Shown here piece after piece: positions 17,736-56,693 of a stretch of DNA of 64,000 nt. Position 1 is the first letter of the stretch. Each line of letters opens with the position of its first letter. A program made the translations under genes and the position numbers. The notes under the pieces were generated by a model, which was not told the origin of the DNA, did not search any database, and saw nothing but the letters and a program-made list of their open reading frames with translations. Source of the stretch: Felis catus (taxonomy: Eukaryota); assembly GCF_018350175.1 (NCBI RefSeq), contig NC_058368.1, forward strand, positions 54,872,001 to 54,936,000, read 5' to 3'.

Positions 17736-20493
17736 TAGAGTATTCTAATAAGACTGTGTGAAGTTTCTTTAGTGACATTCTTTGGTACTTGAAATATGTT
17801 CATTTTTAAAAAATTAGTTTGCCAGTAGAACTGGTTCTCTGCATAGGATTAAATACTAAAATACATTCTATGACACTTTCTGAAGCTCAGTTTATTAACG
17901 CATTTCCAGAATTGCTATAGGTTGACCTACAGCAGGTACGCTGTACTTCACTAGAAAAAAAATATTAAAAAAATAAGAATATACCTAAAATAATCATTTT
18001 ATGTTATTTTTATAACAGCTAAAAACTATCACTTCAGAAGTTTTTTTGAAGGTTGCTATAAATATATAGCAAAAAACACTGTTGAATTTATGTAGGAAAG
18101 GAAACTACAGACAATTTGGTGACAAACCTTTAAAAGCTCTCCTCAGAGCAATAAAAATGAACATCTTGTGCTGTGTGGATAGAAAACTTAGTGTCCCAAG
18201 TACTGGTGAATTTTTCCCAGAAAGAGAGAAATGGGCTTTCTGAAAAGAATCCCACAAAGTAGCAGTGTTATTATGTGAGAGAAACATTGCATCTCTGTTG
18301 GGAGAACTCAAGGTAGACTACAAATTGAGGAATGGAAAACTAAATTCAACCAGCACAAAATGAATAAGAAATTCTTTATTAATAAGAAGTCACAGTCCAA
18401 AGAGTTTAAAATATGAATCAATGTTGGAGGACAGAAACATATATGTATGAGTCTATAACTCCACATTTACACCACACATATTTAGTTCTACAGATTAATG
18501 TAAATAGCTTAAATAACTGACCTGTAGTAAGCTCAATGCTAGTTTGATGGGTTTATTGGTAAAATATGCACTTTTATATATTTTAAGTGGAATGCAAAAG
18601 GGAAATATGGGCTTATTCATATAGCAAACAAATATTTATTGTTCCCCTGGCAGAGTCAGGCACTGCACTAGTTGATACAGATTTATTAAGATCTACTCCT
18701 ATAAAAGACTTTTTGCCTAGGTTGCTTCATGTTTTAATGGATGCACCAGAGATTAACCCTTCCCCCAGCAACACCGTATTTCAATTAAGAGTCTTTAACT
18801 CAGGGTATTGTGGTATTCCATGTCTTCTTAACACAGTACTTTCTCTTTGGTCAAGTTTTCACTGTCCATATTGAATTCTGGGAATTGATATCTTCAAACC
18901 TATCTATTCAATACTCACATGTAGAAACTCCAATCTTATTTTCAATATTTTTAATTATTCTACCAACAGAACTCCTCATGAAATTACTATTATTAGCCAT
19001 TGCTGCATTAGTTTTAAACCAATATATTCATTAAATCTATATGAAAAATAAAGTTATTGTTTATTATTAACTGCATGACAATTTACACCACACATGCAAG
19101 TCCACAAAATCAAGTCCAATTCATTTTGGAGATCCCAGAATAACTTATCAGTATGGATTTTCAGTGTGCTTATTCTGGAAATTATATAAATTAACCACAA
19201 TGCGAATTCCACTCACACCTTAGTGTCTTAAGATAAACTGGAAGATGAAAGGAACCTTAAAATAAACTAGTAGAATTCTATACACAATACAAAACGATTA
19301 TGTCTCTCTGACTGATGTCCATATAAATTGTACACTGAATACCTGTAGTTCTGTATGAATCTTTAGAAATTCCAATATGTCTGGAGACACACATCTGGTT
19401 TTCAATAACCTTTGTACATGAATCATAGCATTATTTTCCCTTGTGTAGCATAACCTTTTTAAATGCTAGCCTTGCAATATTAAAACAAAAAAACAGTACT
19501 GTTTGACAACAATTGAACTTGAAATCCAATAAGAAAAGTATTTCTTTTCACATATAAGCTAGTTTTTTTCTGTATTTATGCAATTAAATCATGTATAAAT
19601 TAAATGAACAGATTTATAATATCTCTGTTGATTTTCATCCTTTTGACTTAGATATTACTTACTGGAAATTCTTTTGAGCTTTACTTATAATAGACACAAC
19701 TTCACTGATAAAACCAGATTATAATAAATGCGTTAACATCCATATTTATCTTTAAAAATCTATAAGCTAAATGTATAATTCAAGTTATGTGATTTTGTTT
19801 ACATCATAATAACCACTGATGCAGAAGATGTCTGCTGCTTAATAATTGGTGTCTAGGTGAAAATAGTTACTTTGCAGTGAAAATAATTTTTATTCACTGG
19901 CAAAATTCCTTAAAAATCAAGTACTTTAACAGTTGTATGCAATTTAGACAAATATAAATGTTCTTGGGAGTATAGCTAATGTTTAAAAAGCAGGAAACTA
20001 TAAACATATTTGACTTTTTAATTTAAATTTGTATTTAAATGACACATGTGATTTATTTAGAAAGAGCCAAATGGAACACTGGAATGAAACAGCAGCTAGC
20101 TGAATGTAAGCAGGAAACAGAAGTGGATAAAATATCCTGTGATTATTTTGCATATTTCAGTAAATAGAAGCTGAACTATAAGGATCTCACTTGGACTGAT
20201 GAAGACTATGCCTGTGGCAAGGAACAAAAAACCATGGTCCAGGAAAGAAGAAAAATGTGTTGGCTTCTGGATCTGAGGAAATAGGAATAGACATAAAATC
20301 AGGAACACCTGAATATCAGAGAATAAAACTGATCACAAGGATCTGGATTTTCTTCACCACCTTCTATGGCATTGGTTATATTCTAATCAGTAAGAATAAT
20401 TCAACAAAATAATGGGCGTGAATTGGAACTGTCGAGGTCAAATGAACTGTATGGCCACCTGATGTATACCTACATTGCAATTTTCTCTTGCAG

Positions 20494-21846
20494 TTGATGC
20501 AGTTACTAGTGATCTTCATGCTTCTTAGTCAGAGGTATTGTATGTTGCACCCTTGGAGACTAGTAGCCCAATATTTAATCCAAAGAGGAAATCTACATGC
20601 AAGAGGAAACCTATATAAGGCAGATAGACTTAAAAGGGGAAAGGGAAGGATCTCCAGATGAAAATTAGGAATTGGTGCCAAAAGAAGGGTGCATAAAAGA
20701 GTAGCAGTCATTTGAAGAGGGTACAACTTACTGCACAGATCAATGGTTTAGAGGCAGGATTAAAACACAACAGTTAAAAAAAAAACACCATGTAAAGTGG
20801 TGGAGATTGCTGGAAGTAACAACAGACGTTGATTTGGAAAACAGGAAACTAGAAAATACAGACACAGGAACATGGACTCATCACTGGTGCCTTCTGTGTC
20901 ACTGACTTCTACTCTCATTGGGATAACATTTGTCATTATCATCCAAAGTGACATCGGAGATGTACATTGAGTAGAATGTCAATTCCGGAAACAGTAGATC
21001 TTTACTAAGCTCACTTTGTGTCTTCAGGGATTGTTTTTTGTGCTCGAGCATTATCTTAATGCTTTCACAGGCTTTGTGTCTCAATGATAACAAAACTCCC
21101 TTAACTTCTTACTAGGTTTTTAATAAATTTCCTCTCCGTAAACTCTAGAGGCACATAAACAAAGATGTCCCAAATCATCATCTTTGGGAAGATTTGTTCA
21201 TTTTTATTTGGTAGCCATAAACTTTAGTGATCTACCCTACCACTTAATTATCAATTTGATGTTCTCTCTCTTGGCTTCTAACCTTTGGCCAATCTACAAC
21301 ATAATATTAAGTTAAGTAGTCTAATCTACATCAATCTACTCAGAAGGAATTTTGGACCCCTCACGCACCTCACATGGTGTTAATCTCTGTCCTGCTATAT
21401 CTCTTATTTACCTTCTTCCTTCCATAGCATCTCCCTTATCAACAGGGGAAAAGAAGTCAGCTCAGTCACCACTGCAAGCCTCCAGGTTGCTGGAATTGCC
21501 TCCTGGGCAGCCATTTTGTTCCAAGGCTTCCTACTCCACTTTCCAGGGATGGGGATTTGCACTTAGAGAGCTATAGCAGCATTTATTTGGGAGTGTATCC
21601 TTAAGCTCCTTGTCCAAAGTACCAGTCTCTCTGCATGTTCATATGTGGGACACTTACTAAGGACCAAGCACACTGACTCGGTGGTCCTGCATTATTTAAA
21701 CAACTGGGTAACTCTGGCAGGAGGGTGCAGGGGTGGATCTTTGTCCCATGCCCTCTTTGGATTAAATATTGGGCTACTAGTCTCCAAGGGTGCAACATAC
21801 AATACCTCTGACTAAGAAGCATGAAGATCACTAGTAACTGCATCAA
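20494..21846. repeat. Perfect 95-bp inverted repeat; arms 20494-20588 and 21752-21846
   Basis: ttgatgcagttactagtgatc...aatccaaagagg is the exact reverse complement of cctctttggatt...actgcatcaa; 1163-bp spacer. Confidence 0.97.
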
Positions 21847-22330
21847 AGGATGTGATGGCAAACAAGACAGCCACGCCACTATAGCACCTGAGCAACATGG
21901 GCAAGGAGACCAGAAGGCAATAACTTTCACTGGGAGGAGCCCCACCAACACCTTCCTCTACAAGGGCTGCCTAAAACACACAGACCAACTAGAGTTCTGC
22001 CCAAAATAATAATAAACACTGCCAAACAAGTGACAGCTCCTGAAACAGGCCTGCTGCAAACAAAATGTGAAAGTACACAGGAAAGCCCCTCCCAAATAAG
22101 TGACATAGTGGCCTATCACTCCCATGCACTGAGATGTGCCCCCAGTCTCGGCTAAAATCTATCCCCCGAAGTACAGCCAATTAGTACGGTTTGTTTTGAA
22201 TGTATCCACACCTAGGAAAACGCAGTAAAGAGAACCTGGTGACCACTGGCAGAAACAGAAACAAAAAAGTCCCAAGTCACTTTTGCAGTAGTTAGCAGGA
22301 ACCAATTAATAAGCAAAGAGCAGTTTCCTC
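21430..22330. mobile_element. GC-richer interspersed-repeat-like segment (possible old L1 5' UTR or LTR), family not identified
   Basis: Compositional shift from AT-rich flanks; no splice or coding signal; family assignment is a guess. Confidence 0.35.
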
Positions 22331-22389
22331 ACAAAGCTATGCAAGAGTCAACCATATTACTCACATTGTTAATTATTTCATAAGATTAA

Positions 22390-22825
22390 AAATTCTGCTG
22401 GTGGTGAAACACAACATTCTGACACTTAGATAGATGAAAGGCAGAACTCTGTTATTTTCAGCTCTGAATGTGAGAAGGCATCCAGACAGGGCCACATAGA
22501 GGACTGCAACCTGGACAGAGTACGAACAAGCTGGAGTTGCAGGGGGCAGCATATTTATGGACAGTAGGGTGGAGTTAGCTAGGTTTGCTGGGCTCCCTGA
22601 GGGTTGGCTGATTTGAATGATTTCAGGCTCCAAGGCACATGGGCTATCTCTACTGTCTGGTACCTGACCTTAAGAAACCCAGAGCCTGAAAGTGGTAGGG
22701 GGTGCAGTCTTAATTAGCTGCTCAAGACAGAGAACATAATAGCTTCTAAGCAGGGCCTCAAACCTGGGTCAAGATAGCATTAAAAAACAACAACAACAAC
22801 AAAACCCCACAACCTTCTACTACAG
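22390..22825 (-). mobile_element. Probable old ERV LTR
   Basis: agggtggagttagctaggtttgctgggctccctg...ttggctgatttgaatgatttcagg resembles eutherian LTR antisense sequence. Confidence 0.45.
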
Positions 22826-23266
22826 GTTAAGCTTTGTTATAATTCCTGAATAGATGTTAAAGAGAAGTTACTGATAAACATCCTAGATTTAGCATAAACT
22901 AAAAATATATTAGTGGGCATCAATTATGGGATTGTGAGTTACCAATGACATTGCCTTGATGCACATTCTATGTTAAGGAAAGGAGAAGCACAGGAAGCAA
23001 TGTTTTTATAAAGTTTGAACAAAAAGGCTTTTGGAAGACTAGTTGACTTTGTAGATTGTATTCCTTTTGTCACGGTTAAAAATGTTCCCTTTTCAGCATG
23101 ACTAATTTGATTTCTTTACTAAAAAAGAGACGTCTTTCCTCCGTTTTTGTCTTCATTGTACTGTATCTTCTTTAGCAATCAAGGTTTTTCACTGTTTTGT
23201 CTCTATCCTTAGTGTTTACAATAGTCTCTAACATGTTTGTTGAATAAAGGAGTGAATGAAACTCTC

Positions 23267-25338: not shown

Positions 25339-25485
25339 AAGAAATAACCTGGGCCAAAAAAAAAAAAAAAAAAAAGGAAACAGGATGTGCCTCCTATTCT
25401 TAGAATATTTACTAAGGGAGTACAATTATTCATGTTAAAAAAAATAAAACATTAAATAGTTGTTTTCTAAAATTGAAATAGACTA

Positions 25486-25686
25486 GGGATGCCTGGGTGC
25501 CTCAGTCGGTTAAGTGTCTGACTTTGGCTCAGGTCATCATGTCACTGATGGGTTTGAGCCCTGTGTCAGGCTCTGTGTTGACAGCTCAGAGCTTGGAGCC
25601 TGCTTCAGATTCTCTGTCTCCCTCTCTTTTTTATTCTTCCCACTTGCGCTCTTTCTCTCTCTGTCTCTCAAAAATGAATAAACATT
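25486..25686 (+). mobile_element. Can-SINE (host; tail resumes at 25898-25923)
   Basis: Outer TSD aaaattgaaatagacta (25469-25485) / aaaattgaataagacta (25924-25940). Confidence 0.93.
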
Positions 25687-25896
25687 AAAAAAAATTTTAA
25701 CATTTATTTATTATTGAGAGACAGAGAGACACAGAGTGTGAGCAGGAGAGGGGTAGAGATAGAGGGAGACACAGAATCCAAAGCAAGCTCCAGGCTCCAA
25801 GCTGTCAGCACAGAGCCCGACACGGGGCTCGAGCTCACAAACTGCGAGATCGTGACCCGAGCCAAAGTCAAGCGACTGAGCCACCCAGGCACCCCT
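25687..25896 (-). mobile_element. Can-SINE inserted antisense into the tail of the previous SINE
   Basis: 17-bp TSD aaaaatgaataaacatt at 25670-25686 and 25898-25914. Confidence 0.95.
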
Positions 25897-37900: not shown

Positions 37901-38051
37901 ATTAATTATTGCCACGTATTAATAAGTAACAATAAGCAACTAAGTAAACAGTAAAATGAAGAGAATTAAAGATCAGCAGTTATTTTAATATTCAAGAAGG
38001 TAACAAATACTGGTACTCCCAAAAAATTATCAATTCATATTTATACATTTT

Positions 38052-38259
38052 TTTTTCAACGTTTGTTTATTTTTGGGACAGAGAGAGACAGAGCATGAAC
38101 GGGGGAGGGGCAGCGAGAGAGGGAGACACAGAATCGGAAACAGGCTCCAGGCTCTGAGCCATCAGCCCAGAGCCCGACGCGGGGCTCGAACTCCCGGACC
38201 GCGAGATCGTGACCTGGCTGAAGTCAGACGCTTAACCGACTGCGCCACCCAGGCGCCCC
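38052..38259 (-). mobile_element. Young SINEC_Fc
   Basis: CpG-intact; TSD tcatatttatacatttt. Confidence 0.97.
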
Positions 38260-42443: not shown

Positions 42444-42662
42444 TTTAAATTTTTTTTTTCAACATTTATTTATTTTTGGGACAGAGAGAGACAGAGCGTG
42501 AACAGGGGAGGGGCAGAGCGAGAGGGAGACACAGAATCGGAAACAGGCTCCAGGCTCTGAGCCATCAGCCCAGAGCCCGACGCGGGGCTCGAACTAAGGG
42601 ACCGCGAGATCGTGACCTGGCTGAAGTCGGACGCTTAACCGACTGTGCCACCCAGGCGCCCC
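42444..42662 (-). mobile_element. Young SINEC_Fc
   Basis: CpG-intact; TSD caattagatgttttt. Confidence 0.97.
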
Positions 42663-44959: not shown

Positions 44960-46430
44960 GTATAGATTTATGTATCTTTCTTGGTGCTCTCTGAACTTCC
45001 TAGATATGTAGTTTGGTGTCTGGTATTAATTTTGCAAAGTTTTCTGATACTACTTCTTAGAATATTTCTTTTTCTTACCCTTTTTCTTACCCTTTTTCTT
45101 ACCCTTTTTCTTACCCTTTTTGTATTCTAATTATGCATATGCTACATCCTTTGATATTGCCCCATAGTTATTTTCTGTTCTTTTTATTTTTATTATTCAT
45201 TCTCTTTCTGTTGTAGTTTTTGACTTTGTATTGACCTGTATTCAACTTAACTGATATTTTTCTTGGCATGTTAAGTCAACTACTGAGTCTATCAAAGGTA
45301 TTCTCCATTTCTGTTACTTTTTAAAAATATGTAACATTTTCTTTGTTTATTTCTTAGAGTTTCTAACTCTCTGCTTACACAATCAGTTCTTGAATGCTGT
45401 CTATGTTTTCCATTAGAACCTATAGTAATGCATCAATCACACTTATTTTAAATTCCCCAAATGATAATTCCATCAGCATCATATTTGAGTATTGTTCTGA
45501 TGATTGCTTTTTCTTCATACTCTGCTTTTTCTTGCCTTTTGTAATGTCTTTTAAGTTGTTGTGCTTCTCTATAAGTTGATGTTTGGTAGGAGTTTGTGAC
45601 TTACAGTTCTTTCAGCTGACATACACTGTTACCCTGGAGTTGCCTTGACAAGGTGGTGTAGTGTGTTCAGGAGGGTTGAGAACAGTGGGGAATGATCTCT
45701 AGTTTTGCAATTAGAATCCTCCAATCCTCCAAAGTTGCCCAGACTTCAGTGGTTCTATACTTTGAAACTGGCCTTAAGGAGTGTCTCTGATCCTCTCCCC
45801 TCTGCTCCCCTCTTATAGAGCTTTTATTTCCTCTTGCCTCATACTCCCTACCTATCCTGTCTACAGCTTTCCCAGTCCCTTTCCTTTGATCCACAGTCCC
45901 TATTGACAAGGTTTCTCTATCCTTGTAGGTTAGATAGGAAGCTTGGAGGGGACTTGAGTGGGAAGGAATTCCTATACACCTGCTGATATAAGTTTTCAGA
46001 ACTGTGCTCTGATAAAATCCTTTATTCCTATAGAGTAGACGTGCTACAGAGAAGTTTCTAGGCATGTTTTACAATGGCTACTCTTCCCCTCCGATTGCCA
46101 TAAGGGGATCTTTCTTGGATCCTCACTATGAGAACCTGGTGGGTTCTTTGAGCGAAAGCCCAAAAACATATGTGGTGGCCCCCTAGGAATTTCTCACTGT
46201 ACTCTAATTCACACCCAGTCTCCAGCAATTCCTCAAATAAGCAGTTGCTGCTTCTCTCTGGATGTACTTCTCTCTCATATTTTGAGATGGGGGTTACCCT
46301 GCAACCTAAATTTGTTGATGAGCCCAAGAAAGTGCTATTTTCTTAGTTTTTCCAAACTTTCTTGCTGTAAAGACAAAGTCATAGTATCTAAGCTCTTTAT
46401 CTATTCAATCTGATGCTGGAAGTACTTCCT
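44960..46430 (-). mobile_element. Old L1M (ORF1 and 5' region, antisense)
   Basis: ggtgctctctgaacttcctagatatgtagtttggtgtctggtattaattttg...ctactgagtctatcaaaggtattctccatttctgttac resembles L1MC/MD antisense. Confidence 0.75.
45069..45121. repeat. 12-bp tandem repeat (tttttcttaccc) x4
   Basis: Four perfect units inside the L1 remnant. Confidence 0.92.
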
Positions 46431-56244: not shown

Positions 56245-56455
56245 GTTTTTTTTTAATTTTATTCAGTTTGGAGAAACAAAGAGACAGAGCACAAGCAGGG
56301 GAGGAACAGAGAGAGACAGAGACACAGAATCTGAAGAAGGCTCCAGGCTACGAGCTGTCAGCACAGAGCCAGATGCAGGGCTTGAACCCATGAACCATGA
56401 GATCATGACCTGAGCCAAAGTCAGACATTTAACCGACTGACCACCCTAGCACCCC
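56245..56455 (-). mobile_element. Can-SINE
   Basis: gacacagaatctgaag...gactgaccaccctagcacccc. Confidence 0.94.
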
Positions 56456-56482
56456 AGTAGAGCCTTTCTAACCTAGTCATAA

Positions 56483-56693
56483 GGAGTTCCTGGGTGGCTC
56501 AGCTGATTAAGTGTCTGACTCTTGATTTCAGCTCAGGTCATGATCTGCGGGTTCCTGGGATGGAGCCCCGTGTGGGACTTTGCACTGATAGTGCGGAGTC
56601 TGCTTGGGATTCTCTCTCTTCCTGTCTGCCCCTCCCCCACTCTTTCTCTCTTTCTCTCTCTCCCTCTCAAAATAAACACTTCAAAAATAAGAA
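56483..56693 (+). mobile_element. Can-SINE (older subfamily)
   Basis: cctgggtggctcagctgattaagtg head; TSD-like tagtcataa. Confidence 0.93.

Follow-up and report, generated by a model that had tools for sequence, protein, structure and literature searches.

A perfect 95-bp inverted duplication in AT-rich DNA of the cat, best read as a local templated insertion

Known inverted duplications and the cat locus

Among the described systems, the inverted duplications of the 1000 Genomes map are close to the locus presented here. Of the 229 inversion sites validated for this map, 54% are given as inverted duplications, nearly all of them shorter than 1 kb and no more than 5 kb away from their second copy (PMC4617611). 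For inverted duplications resolved by long reads, a median length of 284 bp and mostly 1-15 bp of microhomology are reported, and a replicative origin is suggested (PMC12350158). Short-range template switches, as formulated in the four-point model, also yield a perfect inverted repeat, with copied lengths of median 12 and maximum 128 nt (PMC7954356). In the repair described for polymerase-theta/SD-MMEJ, the joints carry inverted and direct repeats as products of snap-back and loop-out synthesis (PMC2943611), and inserts originating from several places are read as the result of repeated priming (PMC5068794). A rearrangement class described in tumours likewise has two inverted joints that are confined to one region.

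The window, i.e. the whole stretch of 64,000 nucleotides (64 kb) of Felis catus that was analysed (contig NC_058368.1, all positions counted within the stretch), contains a left arm on the + strand (20494-20588, 95 bp, GC 0.40, no CpG) and, on the - strand, a right arm (21752-21846) that is its exact reverse complement. Between them lies a spacer of 1163 bp (20589-21751), which is unique in the window. With the inverted duplications of the human maps, as these are described in the two reports, the cat site shares an inverted copy of less than 1 kb within 5 kb of its source, here 95 bp at a distance of 1163 bp, as well as the absence of retroposition marks and of long homology at the joints (PMC4617611; PMC12350158), where at most microhomology is found in the cat (candidate micro-repeats of 5-9 nt). 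It differs from them in length, with 95 bp as opposed to a median of 284 bp, and in being known from one assembly. Compared with the four-point model, the copied length of 95 nt is within the reported range, whereas the templates of that model are located tens to hundreds of bases away and not, as here, at ~1.2 kb (PMC7954356). At the left joints of the cat site, the short repeats, both direct and inverted, resemble loop-out and snap-back products of polymerase-theta/SD-MMEJ, but the templates described for this pathway are only a few bases distant from the break as opposed to 1.2 kb (PMC2943611; PMC5068794). For a 95-nt copy whose template is 1.2 kb distant, MMBIR-type switching is an equally good or better fit than SD-MMEJ. 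The locus most plausibly adds one case to the known, common class of small inverted duplications, and it bears no sign of function.

The inverted repeat and its setting

The initial annotation had reported two inverted arms with 95/95 identity and sharp ends around a spacer of 1163 bp, and direct comparison of the arms together with the identity of their flanks confirmed this description. Outside the arms, the identity amounts to 4/20, 10/40 and 19/100 positions, and on the spacer side to 3/20, 4/40 and 20/100, which is chance level in both directions. No exact inverted match of the window exceeds the arm pair in length, for which the chance expectation is ~2e-44; the next longest measures 50 nt and is formed by two SINE copies. 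The longest exact direct match of the window, with 76 nt, is also formed by SINEs. No third copy of the 95-mer was found in the window, in which the best score elsewhere was 30-35 of 190 compared with 30-47 for shuffled sequences, and a 25-base piece of the arm gave 0 matches against metagenome contigs.

The GC content of the window is mostly between 0.28 and 0.43, as in AT-rich mammalian DNA, and the setting looks like non-coding, unannotated DNA. In total, 34 copies of one SINE were counted in the window, which we take to be of a carnivore-type family, and these copies form 22 inverted pairs less than 3 kb apart. The most similar pair of the window (38048-38259 and 42451-42662) is 94.8% alike over 212 nt, including an exact run of 76 nt, and to describe all recognisable repeats as decayed, as had been done earlier, is an overstatement for the window as a whole. 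In two inverted SINE pairs, the two copies nearly touch each other (25485-25896 and 56247-56690, with gaps of 8 and 33 nt), the first of which folds at -274 kcal/mol. In addition, a perfect 12-bp tandem repeat with 4.5 copies is located at 45068-45121, while the search for tandem repeats in 18000-22400 yielded one weak 9-mer only, which lies away from the arms.

The searches for genes and protein families in the region gave the following picture, with the restriction that small exons escape the family and homologue tests used. None of the six frames of 19900-22500 contained a Pfam family (0/6), 15 shorter pieces gave one Pfam match with an E-value of 0.8, and the three + frames gave one chance-level match to PDB sequences (E 0.036). 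The homologue search of 20039-20905 returned 162 candidates, none of them at E 1. For a frame of 118 amino acids over the right arm, these searches gave no homologue and one weak match (E 9e-4), the latter to a repeat protein that is unrelated. Among the 150 longest of the 171 listed stop-free frames of the window (at least 62 amino acids), four weak Pfam matches were obtained, all below the cut-offs. A literature search found nothing that joins inverted duplications with felids and the cat genome, and the supplementary variant tables of the assembly papers could list the site.

Both joints are known from this one assembly, in which the repeat is real. In 20 sequencing runs, which belong to one organism and come from 8 studies, 0.98-0.99 of the 247 words sampled from 20000-22400 are present (19 runs at 0.98 and one at 0.99), and therefore the region exists in other samples; 14 of the run rows are marked as possible sources, and the other six, from four studies, are not so marked. 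Perfect identity and abrupt ends are also what an assembly or library artefact would show, in which a chimeric read or a polishing step wrote the 95 bases twice. In accordance with this, 0/20 runs reach a share of 1.00, and the loss of two junctions would give ~0.975. However, the same shares result from one or two SNPs or from arm-internal words that are lost where contigs break at the repeat (expected share 0.972-0.987), and a real but polymorphic insertion would give them as well. The word shares cannot separate the loss of junctions from SNPs. The micro-repeats at the left joints, which resemble repair traces, also speak against an artefact, and we regard it as improbable.

Origin and direction of the copy

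In our assessment, a one-off local templated insertion that produced a small inverted duplication without function is the probable origin of the repeat. It is the best reading in view of the chance-level identity of the flanks, the lack of a third copy in the window and the absence of marks of retroposition or transposition, and it had already been among the origins proposed in the initial annotation. While germ-line DNA was replicated or a break in it repaired, a 3' end would have left its template and primed ~1.2 kb away on the opposite strand, where a few bases of microhomology allowed it to pair. It would then have copied 95 bases before returning, which would result in a perfect inverted repeat that has acquired no difference yet. 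Fillers at both joints of the left arm are as would be expected from repeated priming of the polymerase-theta/SD-MMEJ or MMBIR type. Local copying by template switching is what is left when gene conversion, transposition and L1 retroposition, whose marks are absent, and inversion from staggered breaks, which is disfavoured by composition, are set aside.

Four candidate micro-repeats on the + strand are found at the left joints. An imperfect direct repeat, in which 20470-20480 matches 20593-20602 in 10/11 aligned columns (P 0.12 alone), brackets the left arm together with short fillers and is a candidate target duplication. It is followed by an inverted 12-mer at 20481-20492, which is the reverse complement of 20598-20609 at 11/12 positions and may represent a snap-back filler (P 0.012 alone). 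The span 20583-20609 contains a 9-nt direct repeat (copies 20583-20591 and 20601-20609; P 0.02 alone) as candidate microhomology, the first copy of which straddles the 3' end of the left arm; the span also includes 20593-20602. Finally, a 7-nt direct repeat at 20489-20504 (copies 20489-20495 and 20498-20504; P 0.13 alone) extends across the 5' end of the arm and could be a trace of re-priming. The combined micro-repeat score was matched by 0.4% of 3000 random pseudo-arms for the left joints and by 81% for the right joints, with a statistic that was devised after the repeats had been seen. That two of the four repeats are imperfect is odd beside a perfect arm and counts against a templated insertion.

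Mobile elements were considered as well. For L1-mediated retroposition (TPRT), there is no poly(A) at either arm and the only direct repeat is the imperfect one of 10/11 columns; for a DNA transposon or MITE, there is no Pfam match in the six frames and the element is unique in the window. A repeat of at least 7 nt common to both outer flanks beside the arms was not found. The initial annotation had stated that target-site duplication, poly(A) and transposase are missing. This holds for poly(A) and for Pfam families in 19900-22500, but the statement on the target-site duplication has to be qualified, with an imperfect direct repeat (P 0.12, not significant by itself) around the left arm and its fillers.

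Two further origins had been proposed for the repeat. Gene conversion is a known process that could have homogenised older inverted homologous arms, but diverged homology beyond the identical tract is absent. The outer flanks gave P 0.27, and the P of 0.045 for the inner flanks goes back to a short match more than 250 nt from the arm ends. This origin is disfavoured and we hold it to be extremely unlikely. Staggered breaks, on the other hand, yield inverted copies that flank a unique spacer. This geometry is found here and would suit the breakpoint duplication of a 1.2-kb inversion, with a spacer that is now reversed relative to the ancestor. However, the composition prefers the present orientation of the spacer by 36-83 bits in 4/4 settings. 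Among the three settings that were run with 400 random controls each, the values of 63 and 83 bits exceeded the 90th percentile and that of 41 bits fell just short of it. The test is generally a weak one, with only 57-67% of the controls positive. The left end of the spacer is purine-rich and has a GC content of 0.39 compared with 0.38 in the left outer flank, and the right end has 0.46-0.50 compared with 0.49 in the right outer flank. Because each end resembles its present outer neighbour, the spacer has probably not been flipped, and the inversion is disfavoured and appears very unlikely as the source of the repeat.

Within the preferred reading as a templated insertion, it is somewhat more probable that the left arm is the inserted copy and the right arm the template than the reverse. 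We infer both the insertion and its direction from this one sequence. The four micro-repeats at the left joints and the strand-aware composition favour this direction. In the composition test, the arm was grouped with the right-hand context in 6/6 settings (-2.7 to -8.4 bits), although not all held-out pieces were placed correctly, with some from the right taken for left and one from the left taken for right. The plain GC content points the other way, with 0.40 for the arm, 0.40 and 0.38 for the left flanks and 0.53 for both right flanks, as does a splice-acceptor-like site at the start of the left arm. The earlier proposal of the right arm as donor is therefore modestly favoured, with these two observations opposing it.

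The sequences around the arms were also inspected by eye. The purine-rich + strand at ~20070-20650 resembles the terminal part of an ancient pol of the ERVL type, with an integrase end and a dUTPase-like segment, and if it is such a relic, the left arm would be native. In a dUTPase test with frameshift-tolerant profiles, which were built from 80 viral-contig proteins and then from 349 domains, this segment ranked, with the broader profile, 6 of 312 and 3 of 322 among the scan results, with a score within the background range, and the resemblance is thus not supported by the profiles. No ERVL protein was present among the 120 listed matches of the dUTPase search. On the - strand, ~21900-22900 is presumably LTR-like, followed by leader-like sequence toward the right arm.

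The acceptor-like site (20458-20493, + strand) consists of a branch-like motif, 9/10 pyrimidines and CAG, and it ends exactly where the left arm begins. Acceptor-like sites occur 80 times in 128,000 positions (~0.0006 per position), and 30 sites have all of these features. This position would suit a right arm that is a copy of spliced RNA from the left locus, produced by RNA-templated repair or by a slip of retroposition. The right arm is preceded by 5 nt that are identical to 20134-20138; this stretch comes before a + strand GT located 355 nt upstream of the acceptor-like site. The GC content of the arm matches the left side. The report of 17 probable RNA templates among 1,651 complex deletion sites in humans (PMC4617611) was also counted in favour of this origin. 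However, the inverted 12-mer at 20481-20492 plus position 20493 form the pyrimidine tract and CAG of the site, which is partly explained because the reversed copy of a purine-rich neighbour, as in a snap-back filler from the right, is a pyrimidine tract. Moreover, the 5-nt match, which was sought post hoc, is found twice in the 20 kb upstream, the surroundings of its GT look weak on inspection, there is no donor-like site of at least 7/9 within 700 nt downstream, and poly(A), a nearby gene family and transcript evidence are lacking. An origin from spliced RNA is consequently considered very improbable, and the same degree of doubt applies to its specific form, in which the right arm would have been reverse-transcribed in the germ line from a transcript lacking an intron at ~20139-20493 and inserted 1.2 kb from its own gene. 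RNA-templated repair in cis would then have left a natural and inherited mark, recognisable by the start of the copy at a splice junction. Only if the copy did come from spliced RNA would the locus gain in importance.

Age and consequences

A mutation rate of 0.86e-8 per generation, with a generation of 3.8 years, is given for the domestic cat (bioRxiv 10.1101/2021.04.06.438608). At this rate, two 95-nt copies are still identical with a probability of 0.5 after 1.6 My and of 0.05 after 7.0 My. The event is young but not necessarily very recent. To call it very recent, as had been done initially, is overstated, since the 95/95 identity gives only an upper bound of ~7 My.

Two consequences had been proposed, namely a 95-bp double-stranded stem if the locus is transcribed, and a recurrent inversion of the spacer. 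The arms would indeed pair perfectly in RNA, with a predicted -180 kcal/mol, and could form a maintained stem. However, Rfam gave 0 matches across the window, an arm alone folds no better than shuffled sequences (z +1.5), and 5/5 folded inverted SINE pairs are stronger (-274 to -405 kcal/mol), with 22 such pairs present; a special dsRNA role of the arms is therefore predicted to be unlikely. For a switch by inversion, 95 bp is short. In mouse cells, a shortening of the identical tract from 232 bp to 134 bp is reported to lower recombination 20-fold, and for human meiosis a length of 300-500 bp is estimated, with events on less than 50 bp recorded for close repeats (PMC2583991). Because 95 bp is under the lengths of efficient mammalian recombination, a hotspot of recurrent inversion would be unlikely, while rare flips of the spacer may occur. 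Altogether, the chance that the repeat is a functional element, be it an RNA stem or an inversion switch, appears next to negligible.

In short-read data, sites of this kind are known to have been mistaken for inversions. The repeat described here most likely goes back to a slip of DNA replication or repair, a kind of mutation scar that is common and ordinary in mammals. As a further small inverted duplication within AT-rich, non-coding DNA of a mammal, it most likely has little significance. If it is polymorphic, it could be a lineage or population marker.
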